Assembly (NCBI GenBank): GCA_964556925.1
Contig: CAZKXY010000002.1
Location: 1,953 to 65,952, forward strand
Origin: an uncultured Planctomycetales bacterium
Lineage (GTDB): Bacteria > Omnitrophota > Gorgyraeia > Aquiviventales > Aquiviventaceae
Direction: 5' to 3'
DNA length: 64,000 nt
Shown: piece after piece, positions 22,235 to 62,546 of the stretch
How positions within the stretch are numbered: the stretch's first letter is position 1
Layout of the letters: the number at the start of each line of letters is the position of its first letter
Program-made: the position numbers and the translations under genes
The notes under the pieces: model-generated
Told to the model about the DNA's origin: nothing
Seen by the model: only the letters and a program-made list of their open reading frames with translations
The model's database searches: none

Positions 22235-22249
22235 CCGAGGAGCCGGGGG

Positions 22250-22871: not shown

Positions 22872-24659
22872 ATGAGCGCGCATCACAAGGCGCCGGGATC
22901 GATCGCGCTGCTGATCGTGGCGATGAGCGCCCTGTTCTCACTCGCCATGTTTCGCGGCCTGGAACACAGCGCGGGCTACGGGGGGAGCGTATACCAGGTG
23001 TTGCACCCGGGCAGTTTTCCCGGCGACCGGTTTATGTCGCTCTTCCGTCCAACGATGGTGTCCGCCTATTATCTCCTGGTCAAGCTCGTGGGGGACGTGT
23101 GGTTGGATGACCGGTTTACCATCGTCGTGTTCGCCGCCCTTGCCGTGCTGGCGCTGGCCGGGGTGGACAAAACCGTCCAGCTCTTGGGGGGAAGGCGCAC
23201 CGGCGAGCGCGTCGCCATGCTGTCGTTGATCTTCGTGGCCCATCGGGTCCTCGACAACCAGGCGCAGCTCCTCGGCTCCGAGTTTAACGCGACGCTCTTC
23301 TCCAGCCCCCTGAACATCTGGCTGCTGTATTGGTGTCTCGCGGGTCCGCGGCCGCTGGTGGTGATCCCGTTGATGGTCCTGATCCTCTCCCTCTCTGTGA
23401 AAAACGGCTGGCTCCCTTGCCTCATTACCGGAGTGCTGCTCTGGAAAGAGCGATTGCGGCCTCGGGGTCAAGTGATCGCCGTTGCGGCCACCGGGCTGCT
23501 TGGGGTGCTCGCGTGGCTCGGCTATGCCGCGTTCCTGCGGCGGCCTGATGGCACCGATGTCGCGCTCTTTGATTATCTCCATCGCGAGCTGGAGAACGCT
23601 GAAGCCGATCCTTTTCTGAACCCCTTGGCCGCCAACTTGGTGTTCGTGGGTCTCTGTCTGGCAGGGATGATGGTGAAAGGCCTGCCGGATGCCGTCTCGG
23701 TCAGACTCCGGATCCTGGCCGGCACGGGGCTTGCGGTGTGGTTGGCGGGAGGGCTGTACCTTTCCTCTGCACCCGATCCGATCAAGATCCCCTACCTCGT
23801 CCCCCTTGACGTGACGAGGGCCTTGTGGTGGATCCAGTACGTGATGGGTGCAGCCCTTGGCGTGGCGCTGCTGAAGTGGTTGCAGCGCACCGCCTCCAGC
23901 GCAGGCGTGTGTGTGGCGTGGGGGCTGCTGATGGGGTTGTATCTGGTCCATGAGACGTTTCGAGCGAAGCTTGCCGCGGTGGTGGCCGTGGTCACCCTCG
24001 TGATGGTCGGGATGGCGTGGCGGCGAAACGTGTCAGACACCCTTCGACCTGTCGTCTCGCCGCGGGAAAAGTGCCTGGCACGTTTTGCTGGCCTGCCTGG
24101 CGTGTTGTCGGCCCGCACACGGCTTCGGATCGTGGCGGTCGCGATGTGCCTCGGGACGCTGAGTCTCTATAGCGTTGGCATCGTGCACCGCCGGTGGGAC
24201 GCCCTGGCCTTCTTGGTGCGCCACGGCATCGTGGGGGATAACAGCGGGGCCATCTGGGTCGAGGTCAATCCGTACATCCGGGAGCACACGCCTGCCTCCG
24301 CCACGGTCTTCGCGCTGGCGAGCCGAAACGCGCTCGGGGAGCCATGGGGCCTCCGGTATGAGGGCTCGTTGCGCAACCGGACAGGCCGGTCGATGCCGCT
24401 GGGCTCTGCCTCAGCGTTTTACGTTGACTACCAGGACGTCCAATGGCTCAAAGCCCAGCGCCGACATGTGCAGCTCGTGGTTGAGGCGTGGGAGCTCCAG
24501 GACCTTGCGGGCGTCTCGACGCATCTCGCGGCACTCGGATCCCCGGATTACCTCGTCGTTCCAATCGAGGAGTCTGCGTGGTTGCGCGAGCAACCGGATT
24601 TTGGCTATCAGTTTGAAACCGCGCGCGGAGCCTACGGCATCTTCCGCAGACGCTCATGA
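22872..24659 (+). CDS. polytopic membrane protein, paralog 1 (putative polymerase / GT-C-like)
   Basis: Many hydrophobic segments. Collinear with 26787-28535: MFRGLEHSAGYGGSVYQVLHPGSFPGDRFM vs MFRGLEPTSGYFGNAYQALHPDSFPDDPFM; YLLVKLVGDVWLDDRFTIVVF vs YLLVKLVGERWLDDRVTFVVF. Soluble C-terminal domain. Confidence 0.5.
   Translation: MSAHHKAPGSIALLIVAMSALFSLAMFRGLEHSAGYGGSVYQVLHPGSFPGDRFMSLFRPTMVSAYYLLVKLVGDVWLDDRFTIVVFAALAVLALAGVDKTVQLLGGRRTGERVAMLSLIFVAHRVLDNQAQLLGSEFNATLFSSPLNIWLLYWCLAGPRPLVVIPLMVLILSLSVKNGWLPCLITGVLLWKERLRPRGQVIAVAATGLLGVLAWLGYAAFLRRPDGTDVALFDYLHRELENAEADPFLNPLAANLVFVGLCLAGMMVKGLPDAVSVRLRILAGTGLAVWLAGGLYLSSAPDPIKIPYLVPLDVTRALWWIQYVMGAALGVALLKWLQRTASSAGVCVAWGLLMGLYLVHETFRAKLAAVVAVVTLVMVGMAWRRNVSDTLRPVVSPREKCLARFAGLPGVLSARTRLRIVAVAMCLGTLSLYSVGIVHRRWDALAFLVRHGIVGDNSGAIWVEVNPYIREHTPASATVFALASRNALGEPWGLRYEGSLRNRTGRSMPLGSASAFYVDYQDVQWLKAQRRHVQLVVEAWELQDLAGVSTHLAALGSPDYLVVPIEESAWLREQPDFGYQFETARGAYGIFRRRS
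24026..24086 (-). repeat. 61-bp double-palindrome repeat unit, inverted copy, embedded in-frame in the membrane-protein CDS
   Basis: The reverse complement AAAACGTGCCAGGCACTTTTCCCGCGGCGAGACGACAGGTCGAAGGGTGTCTGACACGTTT matches 45576-45636 at 53 of 61 positions (hand alignment, no gaps). The palindrome centres are 41 bp apart. Confidence 0.8.
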
Positions 24660-33760: not shown

Positions 33761-34519
33761 ATGAGCGCGGTCGATGTGTTGCGCCCACCGGTCCGTCTGG
33801 TGAGGGCGTGGGTGCGCCGGCACAACGGGTGGCTCATCAACGACCTGCAGCGCCGCTACAACTTCAATCAGCTGCAGCGCTTTGACGCGGTGCTCACCCG
33901 GCACGGCCGCTCCTTCAGGACGTGCTCCTCGATCTTTGACTTCGGCTGCGGGCCCGGCCGGCTGACCCAACACCTCGCCGCGCTGGCACCGGCGGCCTCG
34001 GTGTTCGGGTGCGACGTGCGCCGCGAGGCGGTCGCCGAGTGCCGGCGGCGGTGCCCGTGGGGCCGCTTCGTGGTCAACCGCGCCACCCCGCCCCTTGACG
34101 TGGAGGATGCGGCCTTCGACCTCATCTATTCCTACAGCGTCTTCACGCATCTGACCGAGCCCAACCACAAGGCGTGGCTGAAGGAGCTGGCGCGGATGCT
34201 GCAACCCGGCGGGGTGATGCTGCACACCGTGCATTCCTATGAGTACCTCAGGCGGACCGCGGCCTTCAGCCCTGAGAGCCTGGAGAAGTACCGGTTCACC
34301 GAGCCGGTGGACTCGTTCATCCGCAGCGGCCGCGACTACCTCTATGTGGTGGATGATCCGGCCACGCCGGAATACGGCTATACCGTCATGCGCAAGGAGT
34401 ACGTGCTGGACATCTGGCCGCGCGAGTCCGGTCTGGCGCTGGTCGATTACGTGGAGGGCGCGATCGAGTCCTACCCCGAAGGATGCCAGGATCTCGTCGT
34501 GCTGCAGAAGGGCGGATGA
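33761..34519 (+). CDS. class-I SAM-dependent methyltransferase
   Basis: IFDFGCGPGRLTQHLA (motif I) and LIYSYSVFTHL...LKELARMLQPGGVML. AGGAGG SD upstream of the ATG at 33761. Confidence 0.7.
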   Translation: MSAVDVLRPPVRLVRAWVRRHNGWLINDLQRRYNFNQLQRFDAVLTRHGRSFRTCSSIFDFGCGPGRLTQHLAALAPAASVFGCDVRREAVAECRRRCPWGRFVVNRATPPLDVEDAAFDLIYSYSVFTHLTEPNHKAWLKELARMLQPGGVMLHTVHSYEYLRRTAAFSPESLEKYRFTEPVDSFIRSGRDYLYVVDDPATPEYGYTVMRKEYVLDIWPRESGLALVDYVEGAIESYPEGCQDLVVLQKGG

Positions 34520-34534
34520 CGCGCATGCTCGCCA

Positions 34535-34649
34535 GCTGCGGGTGGCCAGGCCTCCGCGCGCCGCTCAGCGAATGTTGCTGCGCCCGGCTCATGACGAAAG
34601 CTCGCAACATTCGAATTCGCGGCGCGCGGAGCGCCTGGCCACCCGCAGC
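34535..34649. repeat. 115-nt extended hairpin nested in cassette A
   Basis: GCTGCGGGTGGCCAGG (34535-34550) pairs perfectly with CCTGGCCACCCGCAGC (34634-34649). CTCCGCGCGCCGC pairs with GCGGCGCGCGGAG. The inner stem CGAATGTTGC (34569-34578) pairs with GCAACATTCG (34604-34613), with a 25-nt loop. Absent from cassette B. Confidence 0.75.
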
Positions 34650-34670
34650 CAGCGCGCGGCCGGTCGCTCA

Positions 34671-34730
34671 AAAGGTGTCTGACACCTTTCCCGACGCCAG
34701 ACGAGCGGTCGACAGGTGTCTGACACCTGT
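34671..34730. promoter_or_regulatory. two perfect 19-nt palindromes 41 bp apart (operator- or REP-like)
   Basis: AAAGGTGTC-T-GACACCTTT (34671-34689) and ACAGGTGTC-T-GACACCTGT (34712-34730). Located ~90 nt upstream of the KdsB-like start. Confidence 0.6.
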
Positions 34731-34816
34731 TGCGATGCGCAGCGGCCTGCCTGCCGGGCAGGCAGGCAGGACCCGGCGGGCTAGCGTTAGGCCGGCAGGC
34801 TGAGGCGGGTGGGGGG

Positions 34817-36703
34817 ATGAGCCGCGTGCGCGTCGCCGCCATCATCCCGGCCCGCCTGGCCTCGCGCCGGTTTCCGGGAAAGCCGCTCGTGCCGGTCCAC
34901 GGGCTGCCGATGGTCGAGCATGTCCGCAGGCGCGCCCTGTTGTGCGGCCGGTTCACCGAGGTCGTGGTGGCGACCTGCGATCACGAGATCCGCGACGCGG
35001 TCGAGCGGTTCGGCGGGCGGTGCGCGATGACCTCTCCCGAGCACCCGGCGGCGACCGACCGCGTGGCGGAGGCCGCGCGGTCGCTCGACTGCACGCACGT
35101 GGTCAACGTGCAGGGGGATGAGATCCTCGTGCTGCCGGCGGATCTGGCGGCGTTCGTGGAGGCGATCGAGTCGGATCCCACCACCCCGGCCTGGAACGCC
35201 CTCGGCCGGATCGAGCAGGCGGAGGCGCTGCGCGACCGCGGCGTGGTCAAGTGCGTCATCTCCGCGTCCAGGCGGATCCTGTGTTGCGCGAGGGATTTTT
35301 CGGCGCTGCCGCTCGACGGGGCCGGCGGATGGGAGCCGGTCCGGGTCATCCTGGGGATCCTCGGCTACCGGCGGGATCTCCTCGAGCGGTACGGCCGGCT
35401 GGCGCGGACCCCGCTGGAGCGCGCGGAGGCGATCGATCAGTCGCGGCTCCTTGAGCATGATCTCACGCTCCGGGGGGTTGAGTTCAGCCGGGGCTATCCG
35501 GCGATCAACGAGCCGCAGGATGTCGCGCGGGTGCAGGCGTCTCTCGCGCGCGATCCGGGGCAACAGGCCGTGCTGCAGCAGGTGTTGGGGTCCCCCCACC
35601 TGGGCGCCACCCCACCTGTCTCAGCGTCGCCTTCGGCGAAACCGCCACAGGGACGTGGGCCGCTGGGCCCGCCAGCGACGGCCCAGACAGGTGGGGGGGC
35701 CAGCACGGCGGAACGAGCCTTGGACGGCCTGCCAAAGGCAGGCCGAGCACAGGTGGGGGGACGTCCCATTGTCTACGTGACGTTGCAGCAGTTCTGCGAG
35801 TTCGATGACCGGCCCCGCGAGGCGCTGCGGGACGCCGGGTTTGAGGTCAGGGAAAACCGCGTCGGCCGGCGCCTGCGCCAGGAGGAGCTGCCGGAGCTGC
35901 TGCGGGAGGCGGAGGCCGTGCTCGCGGGGGTGGAACCCTATCGCGCCGAGCTGCTGGAGGGTCTGCCCAAGCTGCGCTGCATCAGCCGCTGCGGGGTGGG
36001 GACGGACGCGATCGACCTGGCGGCCGCCCGCCGGCGCGGCGTTGCGGTGTACACGACGCCGGATGAGGTGGTGGAGCCGGCCGCGCAGCTGACGGTCGCC
36101 ATGATGCTCGCGCTGGCGAGGAACCTGCCGTGGCATGCGAGCGAGAGCCGCCAAGGATTGTGGACCAAACGGACGGGCAGGCTGCTGTCGGAGTGGACCA
36201 TCGGGTTGCTGGGCTTTGGGCGGATCGGCCGGCTCGTGGAGCGCTACCTGCGGGCGTTCGGTCCCGGGATCCTGGTGCATGACCCCGCGGTGCGCGCGGA
36301 TCTCCCGCCGGGGGTGGTCTGGCGCGAGCTGGACCCCCTGCTGGCCGAGTCCGACCTCGTCTCGCTCCACGCCGCCCGCCGCGCCGAGGAGGGGCCGCTC
36401 ATCGGCCCCCGCGAGCTGGCCCTCATGAAGCCAGGCAGCCTGCTCGTCAACACGGCGCGGGGGTTCCTGGTGGACGAAGCGGCGCTCGAGCAGTCGTTGC
36501 GCGCCGGGCAGCTCGGCGGGGCCGCGCTCGACGTGTTCGCCGAGGAGCCCTACACCGGGCCGCTCGCGCGGCTGCCGAACGTGCTGTGCACGCCCCATGT
36601 GGCCTCGCTCACGCGCGCCTCGCGGGCGTCGATGGAGCGGCGGGCGGCCGCCAACATTGTGGCGCATGTCGCGCAGATGGCGCCGGCGGGGATGTCCGGG
36701 TGA
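34817..36703 (+). CDS. KdsB-like CMP-ulosonic-acid cytidylyltransferase read through into a D-isomer-specific 2-hydroxyacid dehydrogenase (single open frame)
   Basis: N-terminal VAAIIPARLASRRFPGKPLVPVHGLPMVEHV and VVNVQGDE are KdsB-like. The C-terminal part (from ~35768) has LLGFGRIGRLVERYL, VNTARGFLVDEAAL, LDVFAEEP and TPHVAS. The ~60-codon linker (35590-35765) is encoded by palindromic repeat DNA. An alternative internal start for the dehydrogenase is ATT 35768 or GTG 35777, after a GGTGGGGGG run. Confidence 0.65.
   Translation: MSRVRVAAIIPARLASRRFPGKPLVPVHGLPMVEHVRRRALLCGRFTEVVVATCDHEIRDAVERFGGRCAMTSPEHPAATDRVAEAARSLDCTHVVNVQGDEILVLPADLAAFVEAIESDPTTPAWNALGRIEQAEALRDRGVVKCVISASRRILCCARDFSALPLDGAGGWEPVRVILGILGYRRDLLERYGRLARTPLERAEAIDQSRLLEHDLTLRGVEFSRGYPAINEPQDVARVQASLARDPGQQAVLQQVLGSPHLGATPPVSASPSAKPPQGRGPLGPPATAQTGGGASTAERALDGLPKAGRAQVGGRPIVYVTLQQFCEFDDRPREALRDAGFEVRENRVGRRLRQEELPELLREAEAVLAGVEPYRAELLEGLPKLRCISRCGVGTDAIDLAAARRRGVAVYTTPDEVVEPAAQLTVAMMLALARNLPWHASESRQGLWTKRTGRLLSEWTIGLLGFGRIGRLVERYLRAFGPGILVHDPAVRADLPPGVVWRELDPLLAESDLVSLHAARRAEEGPLIGPRELALMKPGSLLVNTARGFLVDEAALEQSLRAGQLGGAALDVFAEEPYTGPLARLPNVLCTPHVASLTRASRASMERRAAANIVAHVAQMAPAGMSG
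35592..35760. repeat. nested CCCCACCTGTC-type palindromic element(s) inside the KdsB-like/dehydrogenase ORF
   Basis: Inner pair ACCCCACCTGTC (35609-35620) / GACAGGTGGGGGGG (35686-35699). Outer pair CCCCCCACCTGG (35592-35603) / CACAGGTGGGGGG (35748-35760). Hairpin GGCCTGCC-AAA-GGCAGGCC at 35726-35744. Same terminal motif as 31019-31118. Confidence 0.75.
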
Positions 36704-40382: not shown

Positions 40383-41761
40383 TGGACCGTGAGCGGCCGA
40401 GGGTGCTGTTCATCACGTTTGACGGGCTGCTGGAGCCGCTGGGGCAGTCGCAGATCCTCCCCTACCTCACGGGCTTGGCGGCGCGCGGGGCGGCCATCAC
40501 GGTGCTGTCCTTTGAGAAGCCGGCGGATTGGCGATCCGAGCGGATGGGCGCCTTGCGGGGCGAGATGGCCGCGCGCGGGGTGCGATGGACCGCGCTTCGC
40601 TACCACGCGCGGCCGCGGCTGGTGGCGAGCGCCTTCGATGTGCTGGCTGGCGCGGCCGTCGCCTGGCGGCTCATCCGCCGCGACCGGCTGGCCATCGTCC
40701 ATCCGCGCAGCTACCTCGCCGCGGCGATTGCCTGGCTCCTGAAGCGGCGTTTCGGATCGCGGCTGGTGTTCGACACGAAAGGGTTCTGGGTCGATGAGCG
40801 CGTCCAGGCCGGCTTCTGGGTCCCGGGCAGCCTGCCGTACCGCCTCGCGAAGCGGGTGGAGCAGCGGCTGCTCGAGGATGCGGATGAGATCGTCACGCTG
40901 ACGGAGCGCGGCCGGCGCATGATCGAGCAGTGGCCGGGGCTGCGCGAGCCCCGGGTGACCGCCGTGCCGACCTGCGTGGACCTGGCGCGGTTCGCCGGGC
41001 CTGGCCGGGCGACGGCGCCAAACGGCGCGCCGGTCTTCATCTATATCGGCTCGATCGGCCGCTATTACCTGCTGGACGAGATGCTCCGGTTCGTCGAGTG
41101 CTCCCGACGCCGGTTTCCCCAGGCGCGCTTCGTCTTGGTGACGCGGCAACAGGAGGAAGCGGCCGACGCGCTGGGGCGGACGGCGCTGGGCGCGGGGGCC
41201 GTCACGGTGGCGTCGGCGCCCTATCCCGAGATCCCGCAGTGGGTGGCGGGCTCGCATGCGGGCCTGGCGTTCTACAAGCCCGGGGGGTTCCGGCGCGGGA
41301 CGTGCCCGACGAAGCTCGGCGAATATCTGGCGATGGGCGTGCCCGTGGTGGTCAACGCAGGGATCGGGGATGTGGAAGAGGTCATCGGGGGCTCGGCGGT
41401 CGGCGCCATCGTCACGGACTTCTCCGTCGAGGCCTACGAGCGGGCGCTCGAGGAGCTCCGGCGGCTCTGGGCCGATCCGGCGCTCGCCGAGCGATGCCGG
41501 CGGGTCGCGGAGCGCGCCTTTTCCTTGCAGATGGGGATCGAGCGGTACTGGGCCATCTATGCGCGCCTCGCTGCGTTGTCGAACATCACCGTTACACAGG
41601 GCAGCGGGTCCTGCCACGGGCCAGCCCCACGGCCGTCCTCGCCGCGGCGCACGCTTCCGGCGCCGTCGGCTGCGGGCGGCGTGGGGCGCCCCGGCCCGTG
41701 TCACCCGCTGCCCAGCGGGTTTTCGACAAAGCAGCGCTTGGCCGCGAAGGGGAGCGCGTGA
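40382..41761 (+). CDS. GT4 (GT-B) glycosyltransferase with ~60-aa low-complexity C-terminal tail
   Basis: RVLFITFDGLLEPLGQSQILPYL and PTKLGEYLAMGVPVVV (EX7E region). The tail after ...YWAIYARLAA (from ~41570) is P/G/S/A-rich and overlaps inverted-repeat DNA, so the true C-terminus is uncertain. Confidence 0.7.
   Translation: MDRERPRVLFITFDGLLEPLGQSQILPYLTGLAARGAAITVLSFEKPADWRSERMGALRGEMAARGVRWTALRYHARPRLVASAFDVLAGAAVAWRLIRRDRLAIVHPRSYLAAAIAWLLKRRFGSRLVFDTKGFWVDERVQAGFWVPGSLPYRLAKRVEQRLLEDADEIVTLTERGRRMIEQWPGLREPRVTAVPTCVDLARFAGPGRATAPNGAPVFIYIGSIGRYYLLDEMLRFVECSRRRFPQARFVLVTRQQEEAADALGRTALGAGAVTVASAPYPEIPQWVAGSHAGLAFYKPGGFRRGTCPTKLGEYLAMGVPVVVNAGIGDVEEVIGGSAVGAIVTDFSVEAYERALEELRRLWADPALAERCRRVAERAFSLQMGIERYWAIYARLAALSNITVTQGSGSCHGPAPRPSSPRRTLPAPSAAGGVGRPGPCHPLPSGFSTKQRLAAKGSA
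41703..41724 (+). terminator. weak intrinsic-terminator-like hairpin + T-run inside the GT4 tail
   Basis: ACCCGCTG-CC-CAGCGGGT followed by TTT(C). It is also the distal arm of a longer inverted repeat with CAGCGGGTCCTGCCACGGGCC at 41602-41622. 37 nt upstream of rfbF. The T-run is short and the hairpin lies inside an open frame. Confidence 0.25.
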
Positions 41762-42570: not shown

Positions 42571-42573
42571 GGT

Positions 42574-42689
42574 GATGACGCAGATTCGCGGAGAAGCACA
42601 CCCCGTCAAGTGCCGATGACGCAGATCAGGCGTTTTATCGGCGTAATCTGTTCGGAGGGGACGGAGCTGCTCTGCGAATCGGCGTAATC
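42574..42689 (+). promoter_or_regulatory. two pairs of 12-bp direct repeats, each with 41-bp period, in the rfbF-rfbG spacer
   Basis: GATGACGCAGAT at 42574 and 42615; ATCGGCGTAATC at 42637 and 42678. The spacer is visibly less GC-rich than the flanking genes. Confidence 0.5.
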
Positions 42690-42704
42690 CAACTGGGTGG
42701 TTTC

Positions 42705-44204: not shown

Positions 44205-45446
44205 ATGCCTGCGCACACGCGCTGCCGCATCTGCGAGACCACGTTGCCTGCGCCGTTTCTCGATCTGGGCGAGATGGCGCTCGCCAACGCGTTCCTCGCC
44301 TCGCCGGCGGAGTTCGCGCAGGAGCCCCGGTATCCGCTGGCGGTGGCGGGCTGCCCCGGATGCGGCCTGGTCCAGCTGACCCAGGTGGTGCCGGCGGAGC
44401 AGCTCTACCGGCACTACGTGTACGTCTCCTCCACCTCGGAGGCGGTGCGCCGCTACGCCCAGGAGCTGGCCGCGCGGATCGTGGGGCGCTTTCGCTTGAC
44501 GCCGTCACAGCGGGTGGTGGAGCTGGGCAGCAACGACGGGTTGGTGTTGCTGGCCGTCCAGCGCCTCGGGGTGCAGGTGCTCGGGGTGGAGCCGGCGCGC
44601 AACATCGCGGCCGTGGCCAGGGCGAACGGCGTGCCGACCGTTGACGAGTTCTTCACGGCGGCCACCGCCGGCCGCCTCGCGGCCGCCGAAGGCCGCGCGT
44701 CGGTGATCCTGGGCCGCCACGTGTTCGCCCACATCGATGACCTGCACGATTTTTTTGCGGGCATCGACGCGTTGCTGGCGCCGGACGGGGCGCTGCTCAT
44801 CGAAGTCCCGTATCTCGGGACCCTGATCGAGCAGCTGGAGTTTGACACGATCTACCATGAGCACCTGTCCTATCTGGCGCTCGGGCCGATGACCGCGATC
44901 TGCCGGCGGCACGGCTTTGACGTGGCGGATGTCGAGCCGGTGGCGCTCCACGGCGGCTCGGTGCTGTTCACGGTCCAGCGCGCCGGCCCGAGCCTCGCCG
45001 TCTCGCCGCGCGTCGAGGCGATGCGCCGAAAGGAGCAGGCCCTGCGCGTGAGCGATCCCGCCACCCTGCGCGCGTTCGCGCAGCGGGTCGCCGCCTGGAA
45101 GCAGGGGTTCGAATCCTGCGTGGAGCGATTGGTCGATCAGGGCGCGCGGCTCGCCGGCTACGGCGCGGCGGCCAAGGCGAACACCCTGCTGAACTACTGC
45201 CCGGGCGTGGCCAGGCGGCTCACGTGCCTGCTGGACCGCAGCCCGCACAAGCAGGGCCGGTTGACGCCGGGCGCGCACCTGCCGGTCGTCGACCCGGATC
45301 GCTGGGAGGCCGACGGCACCTCGCACCTGCTCATCCTCGCCTGGAATTTCAAGGACGAGATCATGCGGCAGATGCGGCCGTTCGCCGAGCGGGGCGGCCG
45401 GTTCGTGATCCCGATTCCGACGCCCGAGGTCGTGTCAGTCGGATGA
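44205..45446 (+). CDS. NDP-hexose C-methyltransferase (TylCIII-like), no. 2
   Basis: CRICETTLPAPFLDLGEMALANAF...CPGCGLVQL (Zn ribbon), VVELGSNDGLVL (motif I), YHEHLSYL and a C-terminal FVIPIP tail. Confidence 0.75.
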   Translation: MPAHTRCRICETTLPAPFLDLGEMALANAFLASPAEFAQEPRYPLAVAGCPGCGLVQLTQVVPAEQLYRHYVYVSSTSEAVRRYAQELAARIVGRFRLTPSQRVVELGSNDGLVLLAVQRLGVQVLGVEPARNIAAVARANGVPTVDEFFTAATAGRLAAAEGRASVILGRHVFAHIDDLHDFFAGIDALLAPDGALLIEVPYLGTLIEQLEFDTIYHEHLSYLALGPMTAICRRHGFDVADVEPVALHGGSVLFTVQRAGPSLAVSPRVEAMRRKEQALRVSDPATLRAFAQRVAAWKQGFESCVERLVDQGARLAGYGAAAKANTLLNYCPGVARRLTCLLDRSPHKQGRLTPGAHLPVVDPDRWEADGTSHLLILAWNFKDEIMRQMRPFAERGGRFVIPIPTPEVVSVG

Positions 45447-45720
45447 CGCGCATGCCCGCCAGCTGCGGGGTGGGCTCGCCTGCGGGGCGCGGCGTCGCTC
45501 CGGCCGCCCAGCGTGCGGCCGGTCGCTCAAAAGGTGTCAGATACTGCTCTGTCGAAAAGCCGCGGTTCCAGAGCAAAAAGTGTCAGACACGTTTCCCGCT
45601 GCGAGACGACAGGTCAAAAGGTGTCTGACACTTTTTGCGATGCGCAGCGGCCTGCCGGCCAGGCAGGACCCGGCGGGCTAGCGTTAGACCGGCGGGCTGA
45701 GGTGGGGAGAGGATGACGCG
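45441..45720 (+). repeat. composite intergenic cassette B flanked by a perfect 10-bp direct repeat GGATGACGCG
   Basis: GGATGACGCG at 45441-45450 contains the upstream TGA. The same 10-mer at 45711-45720 contains the downstream ATG. The two copies are 270 bp apart. The interior is homologous to cassette A and carries three GTGTC-N-GACAC half-palindromic sites centred at 45539, 45585 and 45626. Confidence 0.8.
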
Positions 45721-46618
45721 GGTGCTGGTGATCGGGGCGGCAGGCCAGCTCGGGCGCGCCCTGTGCGAGGCGCTCCGGCAGGCGCAGCATGAGGTGGTCG
45801 AAAGCGTCCGCCGCGCACCGCAGCCAGGCCAGCTCTGCGTGGATCTCGAGGCGCCTGCTGATGCGATCGCGGCGGTGCGGCGGTGTGCGCCGGACTGGAT
45901 CCTGATCGCCGGCGCCTTCTGCAATGTGGACCTGGCCGAGACGGAAGCCGCTCGATGTCGCACGGTGAACGTGGAAGGCCCCCGGGCCATCGCCGCCTAC
46001 GCCCAGGCCGCTGGCTGCCGGGTGGTCTATTACTCCACCGACCAGGTCTTTGATGGGACGCGCGAGTCGTGCCGGGAGACGGATCCCGTCAACCCGCTGA
46101 ATGCGTACGCGCAGAGCAAGGCCCAGGGCGAAGCGGCGATCCGATCGGCGCTTCCGGATCGGCATCTCATTCTCCGAAGCGCGTGGCTCTACGGCCCGGA
46201 CCCGGCACGGCGCAACTTCGCGCTGCGCCTCATCGACACGCTCAGCGCCGGATCTGCCGTGCGCGTGCCGTCGGATCAGTGGGGGACCCCGACGTACACG
46301 GAGGATCTGGCCGAGGTGACGCGGTTCCTGATGGCGCGCGGCCGGTGCGGGACGCTCCACGCCACCGGGCCGGAGCTCATCGATCGGGTCTCGCTGGCCC
46401 GGCGCATCTGCGCCGCTTTCGAGCTAGATGAGCGCCAGGTGGTGCCGACCCCGACCGCCCAGCTGCGGCAGCCGGCCAGACGCGCCCTGCGCGTCCGGCT
46501 GGAAGGCGGGGCGCTTCAGGCGGTCGGTGCCGGGCCGCTGCGAGGGGTTGAGGAGGGGCTGGCCGCGCTGCGCCAGTGGCAGAGAAACAGTGCCTGGCCC
46601 GTTTCCATCGTCGGATGA
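45713..46618 (+). CDS. NDP-4-dehydro-6-deoxyhexose reductase (RmlD-like)
   Basis: VLVIGAAGQLGRAL, YYSTDQVFDG and NAYAQSKAQGE (YxxxK). Confidence 0.8.
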   Translation: MTRVLVIGAAGQLGRALCEALRQAQHEVVESVRRAPQPGQLCVDLEAPADAIAAVRRCAPDWILIAGAFCNVDLAETEAARCRTVNVEGPRAIAAYAQAAGCRVVYYSTDQVFDGTRESCRETDPVNPLNAYAQSKAQGEAAIRSALPDRHLILRSAWLYGPDPARRNFALRLIDTLSAGSAVRVPSDQWGTPTYTEDLAEVTRFLMARGRCGTLHATGPELIDRVSLARRICAAFELDERQVVPTPTAQLRQPARRALRVRLEGGALQAVGAGPLRGVEEGLAALRQWQRNSAWPVSIVG

Positions 46619-47692: not shown

Positions 47693-48799
47693 GTGAAGCT
47701 TCGGCTCTTAGACTGGCTGGCCTGCCCGGATTGCGGCGGGCCGGTCGAGGCGGAGGCGTTCAGGCGGGATGACGCCAGCGGCGAGATCGAGGAGGGGCTG
47801 CTGCGCAGCGGCTGCGGGCGGGTCTACCCGGTGGTCCAGGCGATCCCGCGCATGCTCGATGAAGGCGTGGAGCTGTTCCCCGAATTTGCCAGGCGGTACG
47901 CGGATCGGCTGCCGCCGGAGCGCCGCCAACCGGCCGGCGGCAGGTTTTCCGTGTCCGAGCGGTTGATCCGCCGCACCATGGAGAGCTTCGGCTACCAGTG
48001 GACGCTCTTCCCGGAGATGGTCATCGATTTCCGGGAGAATTTCCTCCGGTACATGGAGCCGTTGACGGAGTCCTTTTTCCGCGGGAAAGTCGGCATCGAC
48101 CTCGGCTGCGGCTTCGGCCGGCATGTCTACAACGCGGCCCAGTGCGGGGCGGAGATGGTCGGCGTGGACTTAAGCCGCGCCATCGATGCCGCGCGGCGGA
48201 ACACCCGGCGACTGGCCAACGTCCATCTCGTCCAGGCCAATCTGTACCGCCTGCCGTTCCGGCGGCAGTGCTTCGATTTCGCCTACAGCCTCGGGGTCCT
48301 GCATCACCTCCCTGATCCCGAGCGGGGGTTTGCGTGCCTGTGGCCGCTGGTCAAGCCGGGCGGCACCGTGCTCATCTGGGTCTACAGCAAGAGCCGGCGG
48401 GTGACCAATTGGCTGCTGGAGACCGTCCGCGGCATCACGACCCGCCTCTCCGCACGGGCGCAGACGGCCATCGCCTATGCGTGCGCCGCGGCGGACTGGT
48501 CGCTGTTCATCGCGCCGTACCGGATCGGATCGCGCCTGCCCGTGATCGGCCGCCTCGTGGACCAAATCACCTTTCCTCGGCTCAAAGTCTACAGCGCGTA
48601 CCCCTTCCAAGTCGTCTGCGCGGACTGGCTCGACCGCCTGACGGCGCCCATCCGGTTTTACTACGACGGGCAGGATTTGGACGGCTGGTTCCGGCGGGCC
48701 GGACTGGATCAGATCCGGGTCCACGCGACCGGCTTGTTCGGTTGGACGGCCTGCGGGCAGACCGCGCCGACTGAGCACCCGTCCCCTATCCCGTCATGA
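47693..48799 (+). CDS. Trm112-like Zn-ribbon + class-I SAM methyltransferase
   Basis: LLDWLACPDCGG...YPVVQAIPRML (Trm112p-like) then GIDLGCGFGRHV (motif I). GTG start 7 nt after GAGGAG. Confidence 0.7.
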   Translation: MKLRLLDWLACPDCGGPVEAEAFRRDDASGEIEEGLLRSGCGRVYPVVQAIPRMLDEGVELFPEFARRYADRLPPERRQPAGGRFSVSERLIRRTMESFGYQWTLFPEMVIDFRENFLRYMEPLTESFFRGKVGIDLGCGFGRHVYNAAQCGAEMVGVDLSRAIDAARRNTRRLANVHLVQANLYRLPFRRQCFDFAYSLGVLHHLPDPERGFACLWPLVKPGGTVLIWVYSKSRRVTNWLLETVRGITTRLSARAQTAIAYACAAADWSLFIAPYRIGSRLPVIGRLVDQITFPRLKVYSAYPFQVVCADWLDRLTAPIRFYYDGQDLDGWFRRAGLDQIRVHATGLFGWTACGQTAPTEHPSPIPS

Positions 48800-51498
48800 C
48801 GAGTCTCGTGTCCATCGTCTGCGTCTCCGCAGGAATCGTGGTGGCCGGCAGTGGGCTGCTCTGGTGGCTCGCGCGCGCGCCGGATGATCGGCGGCTGCGC
48901 CCCATCCTGCTCACCTCGTTCTGGATTCGGGCGTCGCTGGGGATCGCGCTCTACGCCATCTCCTTCCAGCACTGGCCCATCCTGCCCTCCCTGCACGTCC
49001 AAGACGGGTTCTGGACCTTTGCGCTCGACGCCCGCCTCTACCATTCCTGGGGCGTCACGATCGCCGAGGCCTGGCAACATGGCATCGAGCTGCCTGATTC
49101 GGGAGCCACGTACGACTATTACGCGATCATCGCGGCGATCTACCGGCTGCTCGGAGCCCACCCGCTCTACGCGATTCTGCTGCACGCCTGGCTCGGGGCG
49201 CTGACCGGATGGCTGGCGTACCGTATCGGCCAGCGGCTCTTCGACGCGCGGAGCGCCTTGCGTGGGGCGCTCCTCGTGAGTTTTTGGCCCTCATCGGTGC
49301 TCTGGTCCACCCAGATCCTCAGGGATTCAATCAGTTGGTCTCTCATCCTGGCCGTCCTGTGGCTGGTCGCCCTGATGGTTGGACCGGATGCCCGGCCCCT
49401 TCGCGTCCGGGGATGGCGGTGGGCGCTGCAGGCCGCGGCCCTTGCCGGCGCGACCATCCTGCTGGCACGGCTCCGGGTCTACCTGGGCCCCATCCTGGTC
49501 GTGACGGCGCTTGTGACGCTTGTCCCGGCTGGCTTCATGAACCGTCGGGTGGGCCGGCCTCTGTGGCGCACCATCTCGCTGATCAGCCGCCGGGTGGGCC
49601 GGCCTCTGTGGCGCACCATCTCGCTGATCAGCCGCCGGGTGGGCCGGCCCATCTGGCGTTGTGCCCGCCTCATCCGCCGTCCGGTCGTTCAGGCCGCATG
49701 GCCGGCAAGCGTGGCGGCCCTGGTGATCATCGCCGTGGTGGTGGCGAGGGATCTGGATACGACCCGGCTCGTCTCGCCAGCGCATCCTGAGGAAGGGCAC
49801 GTCAGGCTCGGCCTGCAGCATCAGCGGTCCGGCGATCTCGCGCAGGCGGAGGTGGAGTTCAAACGGGCGATCCAGCTCCGGGCGGACTACCAGCCGGCCT
49901 ACCGGCTGTTGGCAGACCTGTTGTCCAAGGCGAACCGGCCGGAGGAGGCGCTTGAGGTCTGCGCGAGTTGGCCAGGCGCCGACGACGATGGCGCGATGCG
50001 CCAGTGCGTCAGCCAGCTCAAGGCTCGCTTGAGCGAGCAGGCGCTTGTCCGGAAGCCGGATGCCACGCAGGCGGCGCCGGCGGTGCCGCCTGCCATGGCG
50101 CAGGCGCCCGCAGCCCCCCAGGCGCCTGGAGAGATGGGAGTCGCTCCCCCATCGCCCGCCACCAGCGCGCGCCTCGGACCGAAGCCACGCCGACGCCGCT
50201 GGGGGAAGAATACGCCGCCTGAGGTGGAGGCCGGGCCGGCCCAGAGCGTTCCCGATCCCCAGTCGGTGGTCCTGAAGGGGGAGGTGGTCGATGACGGGCG
50301 GCCCACCAACACCCTGACGTACCACTGGACCCAGATCTTCGGCCCGGCCCCCGCGCGCTTCGCCACCCCCAACGCCCTGGAGACCAGGGTGGAGCTGCCC
50401 GCGCGCGGGCGCTATAACTTCTATTTCACCGCCTCGGATGGGGACCTCAGCGGCTTCGATGGGCTCTTCGTCACCGTAGAACCGCTCCCAAATACGCCGC
50501 CGAAGGTGGAGGCCGGGCCGGCCCAGAGCGTTCCCGATCCCCAGTCGGTGGTCCTGAAGGGGGAGGTGGTCGATGACGGGCGGCCCACCAACACCCTGAC
50601 GTACCACTGGACCCAGATCTTCGGCCCGGCCCCCGCGCGCTTCGCCACCCCCAACGCCCTGGAGACCAGGGTGGAGCTGCCCGCGCGCGGGCGCTATAAC
50701 TTCTATTTCACCGCCTCGGATGGGGACCTCAGCGGCTTCGATGGGCTCTTCGTCACCGTGGAGGGCTTCCCGGTGCTGGCAGCGCCCCCGACCGAAACCC
50801 AGCCTCGCCTCGCCCTCCACCCCCCGTCAACCGCCCCCCTCATGACCCGGCTGATCACCCAGGGGATGGCCGTGGTGCATGAGATGAGCCCCCAGTGGCT
50901 CTCGTCCCTTCGGACCAGCGTCGTCATGGGCGGCGGCGAGTTGATGGACGCGCAGAAGGAGATCTTGCAGCCGTTCGACCTGATCACCTATCTGCCCCGC
51001 GCGCTGCTCGTGGGGTTTCTCGCCCCGTTTCCGCAGCAGTGGTTCGATACCAGCGGCAGCACGGGGGCGATGCGGCTCTTCGCGGGGGTGGAGATGGCCG
51101 TGAGCTATCTGCTCCTGATCGGGCTCGTGCTGCGCGCCTGGCGAGCGATCCGTCTGTTTGGGCCGATCGGCTGCGTCCGGCTCGCGATCCGGCGGATGCC
51201 GCTTGGGGGGTGGTTCCTCCTCGTCTACGGCCTGGTCATGGGGGCAGGCGTGTCCCTCGTCATGGCGAACATGGGGACGCTCTTCCGGATCCGGCTGCTG
51301 TTCTGGCTGCCGTTGCTCATCCTGGTGGCGGCCGCGGATCCGCTCGGCAGCTCCCGGTGGCGCCAATGGCTCAGTCGCTGGATCGCGCGATGGCGCGGCG
51401 GGCGTCCCGCCCAAGTCATGAAGCCGGAACCGGTCGGCGAGCCAACACCCGTGACGACCTCCATGGAACCGGTCGCCGGCGCGCGGGAGCCACGCTGA
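48796..51498 (+). CDS. GT-C (ArnT/PMT, GT39-like) membrane glycosyltransferase with TPR segment and two identical PKD/Ig-like domains
   Basis: The N-terminal multi-TM region (YYAIIAAIYRLLGAHPLYAILLHAWLGALTGWLAYRIGQRLF...LLVSFWPSSVLWSTQILRDS) looks GT39-like. It also has a TPR-like GDLAQAEVEFKRAIQLRADYQPAYRLLADLL. Two tandem 94-aa repeats match a PKD-like pattern (VEAGPAQSV...L.GEVVDDG...LTYHWTQIFGP...G.Y.F.FTASDG). More TM helices at the C-terminus. Confidence 0.6.
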   Translation: MTSLVSIVCVSAGIVVAGSGLLWWLARAPDDRRLRPILLTSFWIRASLGIALYAISFQHWPILPSLHVQDGFWTFALDARLYHSWGVTIAEAWQHGIELPDSGATYDYYAIIAAIYRLLGAHPLYAILLHAWLGALTGWLAYRIGQRLFDARSALRGALLVSFWPSSVLWSTQILRDSISWSLILAVLWLVALMVGPDARPLRVRGWRWALQAAALAGATILLARLRVYLGPILVVTALVTLVPAGFMNRRVGRPLWRTISLISRRVGRPLWRTISLISRRVGRPIWRCARLIRRPVVQAAWPASVAALVIIAVVVARDLDTTRLVSPAHPEEGHVRLGLQHQRSGDLAQAEVEFKRAIQLRADYQPAYRLLADLLSKANRPEEALEVCASWPGADDDGAMRQCVSQLKARLSEQALVRKPDATQAAPAVPPAMAQAPAAPQAPGEMGVAPPSPATSARLGPKPRRRRWGKNTPPEVEAGPAQSVPDPQSVVLKGEVVDDGRPTNTLTYHWTQIFGPAPARFATPNALETRVELPARGRYNFYFTASDGDLSGFDGLFVTVEPLPNTPPKVEAGPAQSVPDPQSVVLKGEVVDDGRPTNTLTYHWTQIFGPAPARFATPNALETRVELPARGRYNFYFTASDGDLSGFDGLFVTVEGFPVLAAPPTETQPRLALHPPSTAPLMTRLITQGMAVVHEMSPQWLSSLRTSVVMGGGELMDAQKEILQPFDLITYLPRALLVGFLAPFPQQWFDTSGSTGAMRLFAGVEMAVSYLLLIGLVLRAWRAIRLFGPIGCVRLAIRRMPLGGWFLLVYGLVMGAGVSLVMANMGTLFRIRLLFWLPLLILVAAADPLGSSRWRQWLSRWIARWRGGRPAQVMKPEPVGEPTPVTTSMEPVAGAREPR
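49546..49660 (+). repeat. 45-bp tandem repeat x ~2.5 inside the GT-C gene
   Basis: CGGGTGGGCCGGCCTCTGTGGCGCACCATCTCGCTGATCAGCCGC begins at 49546, 49591 and (diverging) 49636. It encodes RRVGRPLWRTISLIS repeated. Confidence 0.85.
50209..50772 (+). repeat. 282-bp tandem duplication (2 copies) inside the GT-C gene
   Basis: The copies start at 50209 and 50491. A central ~255-bp stretch is identical by eye. Differences occur only in the first ~12 and last ~18 nt. Each copy encodes one 94-aa PKD/Ig-like domain. Confidence 0.9.
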
Positions 51499-60487: not shown

Positions 60488-61540
60488 ATGCGGCCCCCGA
60501 TGGACATTGTGCAGGTGGGCTTGGGCAACTTCGGCAAGCGGCACCTGGAGGCCTGGCGCCGCTTGGGCTTCGGCGAGCGGCTCTGGATCGTCGAGCCGGA
60601 CGAGGCGAAGTGGCCGGAGGCGCGCCGCGCCGAGATCCCCGAGCGGCGGATCCTCCGGTCGCTGGATGCGGCGCTGGAGCGCGCGCCGCTGGTCGATCTC
60701 GTCACGCCGACCGACAGCCATGACGCGCTCTGCCGGCAGGCGCTGGACGCCGGGAAGGACGTCTTCGTCGAGAAACCCATGACGATGACCTCGGCGCAGG
60801 CCAGGGCATTGGCCGCGCTGGCCGAGGGACGCGGCCGCCTGATCCAAGTCGGCTATTACTACCGCTTCCATCCGGCCGCGCGCCGGCTCAAGGCGGATGT
60901 CGAGGCCGGGCGGCTTGGGCGGCTGCGCTATCTCAGCGGGACGTTCTGCGGGTTCAAGCGCGCGCGGAATGACGTGGGGGTCATGCACACGGACGGCATC
61001 CACTTCCTCGACCTGTTCAACTGGCTGCTCGGCCGCCCGCCGGTCGAGGTGGACGCGGTCTGCCGCGACCACTTCGGGCGGGGGCTGGAGGATTTCTCCA
61101 TCGCGCTCCTGACCTATCCGGACGGGGCGGTGGGGAAGGTGGAGTCCGGCTACATCCAGCCCGGCCGGTGGGAGGATCGCGTGGTGGCTGGGGCGATGAC
61201 GACCAAGGAGCTGGTCGCCGTCGGCGAGGCCGCGACGGCCGAGATTGATTTCGAAGCGGGCAGCTATCGGCTGACCGAGGTCCGGCATGAGCCGGTGAAC
61301 GGCGTGTGGACGCCGCGCTTCGGTCAGCGGGCCGAGGAGTCGGCCGGCGTCGTGGACCCGGCGCAGATGATCGGCTGGGAGCTGGAGGCGTTCCTGTCCT
61401 GTGTGGCGAACCGGCAGCCGACCGCGGCCGGGCCGGTGGAGTGCGGGGTCGCGTTGGCCGCGGTGATGGAAGCGCTGTACGAGTCAGCGACCTGCCGCGA
61501 GCGGGTGGCGGTGGACCTGGACTCGCTTGTACGGGGATGA
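60488..61540 (+). CDS. Gfo/Idh/MocA-family oxidoreductase (no. 3)
   Basis: IVQVGLGNFGKRHL, and VTPTDSHDALCRQALDAGKDVFVEKPMT. The start could be the ATG at 60500. Confidence 0.75.
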   Translation: MRPPMDIVQVGLGNFGKRHLEAWRRLGFGERLWIVEPDEAKWPEARRAEIPERRILRSLDAALERAPLVDLVTPTDSHDALCRQALDAGKDVFVEKPMTMTSAQARALAALAEGRGRLIQVGYYYRFHPAARRLKADVEAGRLGRLRYLSGTFCGFKRARNDVGVMHTDGIHFLDLFNWLLGRPPVEVDAVCRDHFGRGLEDFSIALLTYPDGAVGKVESGYIQPGRWEDRVVAGAMTTKELVAVGEAATAEIDFEAGSYRLTEVRHEPVNGVWTPRFGQRAEESAGVVDPAQMIGWELEAFLSCVANRQPTAAGPVECGVALAAVMEALYESATCRERVAVDLDSLVRG

Positions 61541-61559
61541 GGCGCTGTCGGGCACGGCG

Positions 61560-61653
61560 GTTCGAGCGGCGAGGACGCCGTGGGGTGCGCGGCGGCCTGT
61601 CTGCCCGGCAGGCAGGCAGGACCCGCTGCCAGGCGACTGTTCGAGCGAGGAGA
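61560..61653 (+). repeat. short hairpin element flanked by direct repeat GTTCGAGCG(GC)GAGGA
   Basis: GTTCGAGCGGCGAGGA (61560-61575) and GTTCGAGCGAGGAGA (61639-61653). They flank CCTGTCTGCC-C-GGCAGGCAGG(CAGG) at 61596-61620. That is the same hairpin family as 34746-34770 and 45651-45667. Confidence 0.65.
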
Positions 61654-62546
61654 TGAAAGATATCAGTGGGGAGGATCTCGTGTCGAACCTGAAGCTGGCG
61701 GCCAAGCGCGACGAGTCGCACCGGAGCGTCGTGCGGGTGAAGTCGCACGCCATCGGGGGCGAGGGCTTCACCGTGATCGCCGGCCCGTGCGCGGTCGAAG
61801 GCCGCGACCAGATCCTGGAGATCGCCGGGCGGGTCAAGGCGGCCGGGGCGCATCTGTTGCGCGGCGGGGCCTTCAAGCCGCTGACGTTTCCGTACCGCAA
61901 CGCCCAGACGTTCGAGCTGGGGGAAGCGGGGTTGCGGTACTTGCGGGAGGCGGGCGATCGGACCGCCCTTCCCGTGGTGACGGAAGTGCTCGACGTGCGG
62001 CTCGTGGACACCGTGGCGCAGTACGCCGACATGCTCCAGATCGGCGCGCGGAACATGCAGAACTTCCCATTGCTTGAAGCCGTGGCCAAGACGGGCAAGC
62101 CCGTCCTCTTGAAGCGGCACTTCGGCGCGTCGCTGCGCGACTGGTTGGGCGCGGCGGAGTACCTGCTCTATCATGGGAACGCCTCGGTCGCGCTGTGCGA
62201 GCGGGGTGTCGCGGCTCCCCATACGCACGCGCCGGCCTCGCGCTTCCTCCCCGACCTGGCGGTCGTGCCGGCGGCGCAGGAGGTCACGCACCTGCCGATT
62301 CTGATCGATCCGAGCCACGCGACGTTCCGCCGCCGGTGGGTGATCCCGGTCGCGCGGGCGGCGCTCGCGGTCGGCGCTGACGGCATCATGGTCGACGTGC
62401 ACCCTGATCCCGAGCGAGCCGCGGTGGATCCGCTGCAGGCGCTCGGCTTCGACGCGTTTGAGCACCTGATGCGGCAGCTGGACGCCATGGCCCCGGCCGT
62501 GGGGCGCACGCTGCGGAGGGCGGCTGCGGTCGTTCGTGATGGCTGA
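61653..62546 (+). CDS. DAHP-synthase (class I-beta) / KDO8P-synthase-family PEP-aldolase, divergent substrate loop
   Basis: FTVIAGPCAVEG, HLLRGGAFKP, PVVTEVLD, MLQIGARNMQNF and LIDPSHA...GADGIMVDVHPDP are conserved. The canonical KPRTSPYSFQGLG loop reads KPLTFPYRNAQTFELG. GAGGAG SD before the ATG at 61653. Confidence 0.7.
   Translation: MKDISGEDLVSNLKLAAKRDESHRSVVRVKSHAIGGEGFTVIAGPCAVEGRDQILEIAGRVKAAGAHLLRGGAFKPLTFPYRNAQTFELGEAGLRYLREAGDRTALPVVTEVLDVRLVDTVAQYADMLQIGARNMQNFPLLEAVAKTGKPVLLKRHFGASLRDWLGAAEYLLYHGNASVALCERGVAAPHTHAPASRFLPDLAVVPAAQEVTHLPILIDPSHATFRRRWVIPVARAALAVGADGIMVDVHPDPERAAVDPLQALGFDAFEHLMRQLDAMAPAVGRTLRRAAAVVRDG

Follow-up and report, generated by a model that had tools for sequence, protein, structure and literature searches.

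Palindromic repeats in a duplicated ATGA stop/start junction of a glycan gene cluster, compared with mycobacterial interspersed repetitive units

MIRUs, or mycobacterial interspersed repetitive units, are short, mobile-looking repeats that lie between operon genes, in gene orientation and at start codons (Supply et al. 1997, as given in PMC12548453). They are 40–100 bp long, often stand in tandem arrays, and are limited to mycobacteria; their units are flanked by stop/start overlaps (-4 nt, ATGA), and their internal reading frame is coupled to the next gene (PMC12548453). REP (repetitive extragenic palindromic) sequences, together with the bacterial interspersed mosaic elements (BIMEs) and the REP doublets known as REPINs, are mobilized by REP-associated tyrosine transposases (RAYTs) and include two REP super-families with a GTAG or CGTC tag (PMC3116915, PMC3733652); REP dimers insert into small target palindromes (PMC3733652). 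Palindromic elements of Rickettsia and other repeats have also been found fused in frame to genes (reviewed in PMC3184786). Here, we describe a block of repeats at 45451–45710 of a 64-kb stretch of contig CAZKXY010000002.1 (hereafter the window; 69% G+C, every gene on the plus strand). The block separates a sugar C-methyltransferase gene from an RmlD-like nucleoside diphosphate (NDP)-sugar reductase gene and has the decamer GGATGACGCG, which contains ATGA, on either side. Judged by layout, its closest analogue is the MIRUs, which are already known; the likeness is one of described arrangement, not of sequence similarity.

The two decamers share out the parts of one ATGA overlap. The methyltransferase has the zinc-binding, S-adenosylmethionine (SAM)-methyltransferase, and C-terminal domains of sugar C-methyltransferases, and its C-terminus (...PEVVSVG, then stop) aligns with that of its relatives (...PEVVGR, then stop); the N-terminus of the reductase, MTRVLVIGAAGQLG, aligns with MTARRRCLVIGASGQLG of relatives. 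Because these protein ends align with the left-hand stop and the right-hand start, the right-hand ATG is the native start, and because the left decamer keeps the stop and the right decamer the start, both proteins are intact. The ATG of the left decamer is the orphaned former start of the reductase. A GAGG motif lies 13 nt 5' of it, within the Pro-Glu-Val codons, where it also occurs in the relative L117 (L-numbers denote metagenome or database contig loci), and it is the native ribosome-binding site, now ahead of the orphaned codon. An earlier sequence-only reading of the window had drawn attention to this perfect 10-bp direct repeat, with the TGA in its left and the ATG in its right copy, and had claimed that excision of one repeat with the interior restores the ATGA junction seen at about 16 other boundaries. 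The coordinates are as it gave them; removing one decamer and the interior in silico yields GTCGGATGACGCGGGTG, and we count about 16–17 genuine ATGA overlaps in the window. The window contains four copies of the decamer where 0.64 would be expected (a count matched in 1 of 100 shuffles), and with both sites fixed for ATGA the match at its six other positions has p ~6e-4.

Relatives carry the junction in its tight form. The five closest methyltransferase homologues (68–74% identity) have the same gene order, and the spacer is present in 0/5. The two genes overlap by 4 nt in P0002 (74% identity; from gene calls only) and in P0003 (locus L117, 71%; the DNA reads gccgATGAcgg) and are separated by 6 nt in P0012 (68%), 5 nt in P0005 (70%), and 3 nt in P0006 (69%; from gene calls only). 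Junction DNA was read in three of the five, L117 being the one readable 4-nt overlap; the gene that follows there encodes, as it does in the window, the same 355-aa glycosyltransferase. Since the two genes of the nearest relatives have either a 4-nt overlap or no more than 6 nt between them, the block was inserted into a tight junction, as the sequence-only reading had supposed when it called for empty sites, and this junction was probably translationally coupled.

We find that the interior is not the single cassette that had been proposed. Sequence comparison indicates that 45451–45710 is a nest of short noncoding palindromic repeat elements, in which at least three repeat families are combined with later internal rearrangement (table 1). 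The description of the block as non-autonomous repetitive DNA is borne out: its repeats occur in dozens of copies, and no gene-like reading frame was found in them. The block contains a double-palindrome core, whose two palindromes are predicted to pair as a hairpin of ~19 bp. The palindrome GTGTCWGAYAC occurs 12 times in the window (both strands) against 1.8 expected, with copies 41 nt apart, and the core-spacer pattern CACNTTTCCCGNNGCNAGACGANNGGTC has 47 matches (39 distinct) at 38 metagenome loci from four Joint Genome Institute (JGI) metagenomes. Type A is 121–123 nt long with 12-nt terminal inverted repeats (TGCTCTGTCGAA...pal1...pal2...TTCGACAGAGCA) and has the form of a MITE (miniature inverted-repeat transposable element). 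Type B has other arms round the same core and is represented by five copies (two window spacers, L132, L141, and L145), and type D is a palindromic repeat of ~170 nt with the ends GCTGGCTGCGGGG...CCCCGCAGCCAGC. Type C, a third palindromic family of ~105–120 nt with a z = -8 hairpin, was seen at 34533–34652, L141:1236–1341, and L144:7148–7251 with ~90% identity.

The focal block can be read as a backbone of types D and B with a guest. Its left arm is 91–94% identical to L145, L152, L128, L132, and L153; its right arm is common to 34731–34780, 61581–61625, L132, and L141; and its G-rich tail is ~90% identical to 34782–34814 and partly common to L132. Relative to the other type-B copies, 45545–45590 is an insertion of 46 nt. 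A 121-nt type-A element inserted later, into the first 13-nt palindrome of the backbone, at the same point as in a nested type-A copy at L157+1042; the guest would then have been trimmed by recombination between the two homologous cores, for a net gain of 46 nt.

Table 1. Repeat modules, flanking genes, and related copies. Positions are those of the window unless a locus is named.
Feature	Position	Strand	Remarks
Sugar C-methyltransferase gene	44205..45446	+	413 aa; stop TGA 45444-45446; Pfam Methyltransf_13/_14/_23
Left decamer	45441..45450	+	retains methyltransferase stop; its ATG at 45443
Orphan reading frame	45443..45628	+	61 codons; TGA (45626-45628) inside palindrome 45621-45631; 84 nt 5' of reductase start
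Type-D left arm	45451..45528	+	left half of ~170-nt palindromic repeat; terminal motif GCCAGCTGCGGGG at 45458-45470
First palindrome, degenerate	45529..45544	.	AAAAGGTGTCAGATAC; landing site of nested type-A element
Type-A MITE left arm	45545..45574	+	terminal inverted repeat TGCTCTGTCGAA; 88-96% identical to free type-A copies
Double-palindrome core	45575..45636	.	palindrome 1 45575-45594; spacer CCCGCTGCGAGACGACAGGTC 45595-45615; palindrome 2 45616-45636, then TTTTT
Type-B right arm	45637..45683	+	GC hairpin GGCCTGCCGGCCAGGCAGG at 45649-45667
G-rich tail	45684..45710	+	TTAGACCGGCGGGCTGAGGTGGGGAGA; supplies reductase ribosome-binding site
Right decamer	45711..45720	+	retains reductase start ATG 45713
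RmlD-like NDP-sugar reductase gene	45713..46618	+	301 aa; Pfam RmlD_sub_bind, E = 8.5e-64
Sister copy	34514..34824	+	between methyltransferase gene and cytidylyltransferase/dehydrogenase fusion gene
Sister copy, left decamer	34514..34523		
Sister copy, nested type-C palindrome	34533..34652		
Sister copy, core	34670..34730		
Sister copy, GC hairpin	34745..34767		
Sister copy, right flank	34815..34824		GGATGAGCCG; 8/10 identical to decamer
Partial copy	61541..61653	+	right-arm GC hairpin only (61595-61617)
Core-only copy	24030..24081	-	in frame inside 595-aa membrane-protein ORF 22872-24659
Pure type-D copies	L133:2600; L153:5880; L152/L128		

The preference for stop/start junctions depends on the family. 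Type A, the commonest subfamily, has none: it occurs in all kinds of intergenic context and in both orientations. Nine loci carry types D and B (the D/B subfamily), all between co-directional genes of unrelated operons: three lie in the glycan cluster of the window, and the flanking genes elsewhere include a menaquinone-synthesis gene with a radical-SAM gene, ExbD with TonB, an FGGY sugar kinase with a flavin adenine dinucleotide (FAD; DAO-family) dehydrogenase, and a downstream gene that is PgpA-like by its N-terminal motif only. ATGA stands at the upstream stop in 8/9 of these loci (the exception is L132) against 11/76 other co-directional spacers (Fisher p = 1.2e-5), and at the downstream start in 8/9 against 4/15 reliable non-overlapping starts (Fisher p = 0.005). 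D/B copies are in gene orientation at 8/8 independent loci, where 50% would be expected (p = 0.008). The partial copy, for example, lies between ATGA at 61537–61540 (stop) and ATGA at 61654–61657 (probable start, with GAGGAG upstream). Between ATGA and the recognizable end of the element there are 1 to 32 nt, and the duplicated flank comprises 10/10 positions in the focal copy, 8/10 in the sister copy, and perhaps ~11/13 with an indel in L145; the other D/B copies have (G)ATGA(C) only. Of the proposal that the element inserts at coupled junctions with target duplication, the preference for ATGA-flanked spacers stands for D/B; for the duplication, three models are considered below. We rejected insertion of an IS200/IS605-like kind 3' of a fixed ATGA target, given the variable distance to the element end. 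As a separate observation, the stretch of the L145 left flank that separates ATGA from the end of the element (ATGAGGCACGCGGTCCTGCTCGCC...) is similar to the start of a recX-like gene at L133:8119–8160 (ATGAGGCGCACGCGGTCCTTGCGCGC...).

These features define both the likeness to MIRUs and its bounds. Like MIRUs, D/B elements lie between operon genes in gene orientation, with ATGA on each side in the proportions given above; 4/7 have an exact ATGA-to-ATGA frame. Unlike MIRUs, they are palindromic hairpins of 170–300 nt, single or nested rather than tandem, in another phylum, and the focal copy now lacks an in-phase frame.

The repeats also share features with MITEs, of which Chunjie of Geobacter uraniireducens (cited in PMC3184786) is reportedly inserted in operons: they are noncoding, multi-copy, and shorter than 300 nt, and they lie inside an operon without gene loss. 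Type D has inverted ends, and type A has terminal inverted repeats and 9-bp target duplications. Direct flanking repeats of 9 nt (at least 8/9 matching) accompany 7/20 full type-A copies (e.g., GAATGCCGC, GGGGTCAGG, GCCTGGCAC, and GTCTGACCC), and L124, ACCGATAGT, is an eighth case by eye only. The type-A copy at L157+1042 lies inside the palindrome of another copy, and its excision together with one GTCTGACAC restores the host consensus, so that this nesting can be read as an internal empty site. In contrast to MITEs, 8/20 full type-A copies have exact inverted rather than direct flanks (GTGTCAGAC before and GTCTGACAC after the element), the composite 45451–45710 has no terminal inverted repeats, and no cognate insertion sequence was found in the window or at the 38 loci.

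Similar points connect the repeats with REP sequences and REPINs. The short palindromes occur singly, as hairpin-forming doublets (the core, 41 nt apart), and in mosaics; they are extragenic, often inside transcription units; and the inverted flanks of type A match REP-dimer insertion into palindromes. However, the palindrome GGTGTCWGACACC (consensus AAAAGGTGTCWGACACCTTT) lacks the GTAG or CGTC tag, the 9-bp direct duplications of type A are not made by RAYT/IS200-type transposition, and no RAYT gene was seen in ~0.4 Mb of the population. The core-only copy, which lies in frame within an open reading frame (ORF), recalls the Rickettsia palindromic elements; it differs in being the one clear case in the window and in its unrelated sequence. 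That ORF has no Pfam match, and the copy encodes ...WRRNVSDTLRPVVSPREKCLARFAG... within it; L135:2871 and L126:10919 are possible further in-gene core copies. A sigma-54 promoter at 24071 on the reverse core, TGGCACGTTTTGC, was considered and discarded, the spacing of GG to GC being 8 rather than 10.

Our favored reading, which we regard as moderately probable, is a MIRU-like colonization in which small palindromic repeats were inserted in the ATGA stop/start overlap, with the decamer on both sides. The elements would be selfish DNA moved in trans by an enzyme outside the examined sequence, and the block itself is likely selfish, affecting translational coupling and mRNA structure as a by-product. 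It gives the mRNA strong hairpins, one with U5 behind it, that could attenuate transcription or alter decay. Insertion at a staggered cut of 9–10 bp could have produced the decamers and would fit the 9-bp duplications of type A; GGATGACGC resembles the preferred targets of type A (G..TGAC.C). Duplication of the junction may offer a rare way into a tight operon without gene loss, which could account for persistence at ATGA junctions, and the sister copy would belong to the same lineage and derive from copying of the whole spacer.

Several observations weigh against a transposase-made duplication or limit this reading. The ends of the composite (CATGCCCGCC... and ...GGTGGGGAGA) are not inverted repeats, and a staggered-cut insertion sits poorly with a composite that lacks transposase-type ends. 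L141, L133, and L153 repeat just (G)ATGA(C), 1–32 nt from the element end. At 34514 the left decamer recurs together with CATGC, a stretch that other family members lack, so this decamer may have moved along with the DNA. The relatives without the spacer are not close ones, with protein identities of at most 74%, and between metagenomes we found no polymorphic empty site: all overlaps are colinear at ≥99.5% identity, and the samples share identical loci. No autonomous or long element bounded by type-A ends was found in the window and the 38 loci (~0.4 Mb of the population), and the origin of these contigs and the window in one organism is itself inferred.

The sister copy bears most directly on how the decamer arose. 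The interior of the focal block had been described as homologous to the spacer at 34514–34820, and we measure 81% identity overall and at least 85% across the right ~190 nt. The accompanying caveat that the left 10-mer may belong to the element was well placed, since the 34514 copy also begins with GGATGACGCGCATGC. Both window copies share this left stretch (decamer plus CATGC, 15 nt) and the right stretch TAGCGTTAGRCCGGCRGGCTGAGGYGGG, neither of which occurs at the other seven family loci. Because these stretches are unique to the two, they are sisters, and at least one probably arose by whole-spacer copying. The simplest order places 45441 first and 34514 second, since CGCG on both sides at 45441 then needs no coincidence. 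Only one relative, a distant one, has the fusion gene found at 34514; its gene starts with ATGACGCG and overlaps a different upstream gene by ATGA, which is suggestive only as an empty site. An independent duplication at 34514 is possible.

Extended to both loci, such copying would explain the decamer without transposition: copying on GGATGA, by template switching or short-homology recombination, would have taken a segment from one coupled junction to another, beginning right behind one ATGA and including the next; the left CGCG would be part of the moved DNA, and the decamer would be no transposition footprint. We consider this possible, though rather unlikely as a full account. It agrees with the stretches shared by the two window copies alone and with the absence of terminal inverted repeats from the composite, and the 34514 copy fits without coincidence as native GGATGA/GCCGCG plus an insert CGCGCATGC...GGATGA. 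At 45441, however, it needs a coincidence of 4 nt (CGCG; p ~0.01–0.02) unless this copy is the primary one, 6–10 nt of homology is very short for recombination, and the origin of the first copy is left unexplained.

We give somewhat less credence to a history in two steps, in which a small junction duplication first split the ATGA into a short spacer with its own ribosome-binding site, leaving the decamer, and repeats colonized that spacer later. Repeat-free mini-spacers in the same genome (8695–8715, cgATGAGtcaggtggtgccATGAGg; 22231–22253, GGATGACcgaggagccgggGGATGAC; and L133:6591–6612) lend it substance, as does the varying gap between ATGA and the end of the element. Of the non-overlapping TGA stops, 21% are orphan ATGA stops against ~5% expected, an excess of about fourfold by a rough estimate from third-position composition. 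On the other hand, the focal copy has almost no sequence between the decamers and recognizable repeat modules, and simple opportunism predicts only partly the enrichment of D/B at ATGA spacers (p = 1e-5). In the mini-spacers themselves, ATGA is duplicated 15–19 nt apart with a ribosome-binding site between, and a frame of 6–8 codons that opens at the first ATG closes at the second ATGA or just beyond it.

The effect on translation differs among copies. Ribosomes starting at the orphaned ATG of the focal copy, where the native GAGG is kept, would stop at 45626–45628; since the left-ATG frame stops there, the reductase would now rely on the ribosome-binding site of the insert, GAGGTGGGGAGAGG. 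This G-rich motif directly 5' of the reductase ATG, the preservation of both reading frames, and the hairpins and palindromes brought in by the insert had all been described by the sequence-only reading, and folding analysis and sequence agree with it. Its further claim, that the two frames are uncoupled, is true of the present focal copy but does not extend to four relatives, which keep an in-phase ATGA-to-ATGA frame: 61537–61657 (39 codons), L145 (70), L133 (101), and L153 (91). Without the 46-nt piece (45545–45590), the focal copy also has such a frame, of 75 codons and ending exactly on the right ATGA. The exact frame is thus present in 4/7 family members and in the reconstructed focal ancestor (p = 0.028).

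One can propose from this a translated relay of the MIRU kind, in which the element is tolerated or selected because a frame from the upstream to the downstream ATGA hands ribosomes on and melts the hairpins. We hold this only tentatively and think it unlikely. Beyond the open, in-phase frames of the four copies and of the focal copy without its 46 nt, the frame at 34514 stops 13 nt 5' of the start, a frame in L132 opens 14 nt past the stop and closes on ATGA, the left ATGs keep their upstream G-rich motifs, and MIRUs offer a precedent. Yet 12/21 frames are open anyway in these GC-rich spacers, the binomial p value is just 0.028 for copies related by descent, the frame used to read the same DNA differs between copies, and the focal copy and L141 have no relay today.

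A regulatory role fares less well. The palindromes GGTGTCWGACACC could be operators for a dimeric DNA-binding protein, or the palindrome-pair hairpin with its U5 tract could be an attenuator setting expression within operons, or both; we consider such a cis-regulatory module quite unlikely. The hairpin with TTTTT (45575–45641) resembles an intrinsic terminator, but with a loop of ~21 nt. TTTTT follows palindrome 2 in 3/5 type-B copies, all D/B copies are in sense orientation, predicted folding is strong (focal copy, z = -2.5; sister copy, z = -8), and the palindrome is highly conserved among copies in addition to its excess in the window. Against this, D/B copies stand in functionally unrelated operons and type A in intergenic DNA everywhere and in both orientations, and nesting, target duplications, and in-frame copies in genes are hallmarks of mobile DNA. 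A consensus scan of the spacers found no canonical promoter or terminator, RNA stability showed no consistent bias between sense and antisense as a sign of RNA-level selection, and Rfam gave no match at the gathering threshold in the window (at E up to 1, microRNA-hairpin noise only, E = 0.009).

That the decamer marks two gene boundaries alike by chance and the spacers are ordinary diverged intergenic DNA is exceedingly improbable: ATGACG (Met-Thr) is indeed a common start at coupled junctions (3/17 in the window), but the six extra matching positions, an interior common to dozens of loci, and relatives without the spacer all speak against it.

Further repeat remnants lie in the window and the related contigs. 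The 23-nt GC palindrome GCCTGCCTGCCNGGCAGGCAGGC, which is the right-arm hairpin of type B, occurs alone inside coding regions at L128:4336–4359 and L133:150–174. Window positions 41571–41735 have degenerate type-A-like arms (GCTGCGTTGTCGAAC ... CAGCGGGTTTTCGACAAAGCAG) round a different interior; they sit at the 3' end of a reading frame that stops at 41761, just 5' of a GTGATG junction. In the spacer at 42571–42704, two copies of GATGACGCAGAT lie at a distance of 41 nt and two of ATCGGCGTAATC at a distance of 42 nt, and there is no palindromic core; at the same position in another metagenome (L002:450–625) there is a different spacer with a remnant of the type-A right arm, and upstream of 42701 the sequences diverge. 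For GATGACGC, the window shows a 2.7-fold excess. Tandem repetition occurs within the 900-aa gene at 48796–51498, as a 282-nt duplication of two copies that are 99% identical (50209–50762) and as three 45-nt units (49537–49671).

The palindrome itself reaches far beyond this population. Pairs or arrays of GTGTCWGACAC were found at more than 113 loci from very distant phyla (L004–L116, e.g., L016, L020, L038, L009, L013, L053, and L007), where ~1.4 matches would be expected by chance on a rough estimate. The hosts include Achromobacter, Bordetella petrii (many copies), Acidimicrobiales, Gaiellales, Thermoleophilia, Aminicenantes, Vicinamibacterales, Omnitrophota, Treponema, and Ferruginibacter, and the surrounding repeats are unrelated. 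No conserved protein was found beside it across phyla, only abundant paralogue families (Bug/TctC, ABC, LysR, and kinases), and a literature string search with the palindrome returned eukaryotic and other primers only. The 13-nt palindrome GGTGTCWGACACC, lying inside unrelated repeats of many phyla, might serve some widespread enzyme as a common site of landing or recognition.

The window and the repeat-bearing contigs probably derive from one Omnitrophota-like population, given the shared samples, similar G+C content, and ~90% identical repeats. Candidatus Omnitrophota supplies the best named relatives (55–68% identity) of an alanyl-tRNA synthetase encoded on one of the repeat-bearing contigs, and also the named methyltransferase homologues. 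For work on such genomes, the repeats explain the odd gaps of ~270–300 nt in an otherwise gap-free 64-kb glycan gene cluster; they also create spurious small reading frames and break assemblies (one public assembly of the locus ends at 45524, inside the repeat, as is typical of a break at a repeat). No new biochemical system is revealed. A bolder proposal, which we put forward as doubtful, is that a palindromic repeat lineage of Omnitrophota specifically colonizes ATGA overlaps, duplicates the junction, and stays translated as an in-phase bridge, so that coupling is relayed rather than broken; if true, hairpin-type elements would have invented the MIRU strategy independently. Should the junction preference hold genome-wide, MIRUs would be joined by another, phylogenetically remote example of repeats invading tightly packed operons precisely at stop/start overlaps. 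Such a preference would also offer a natural experiment on the loss, relay, or rebuilding of translational coupling, in a genome that has intact overlaps alongside short mini-spacers (ATGA...ATGA) and spacers filled with repeats.

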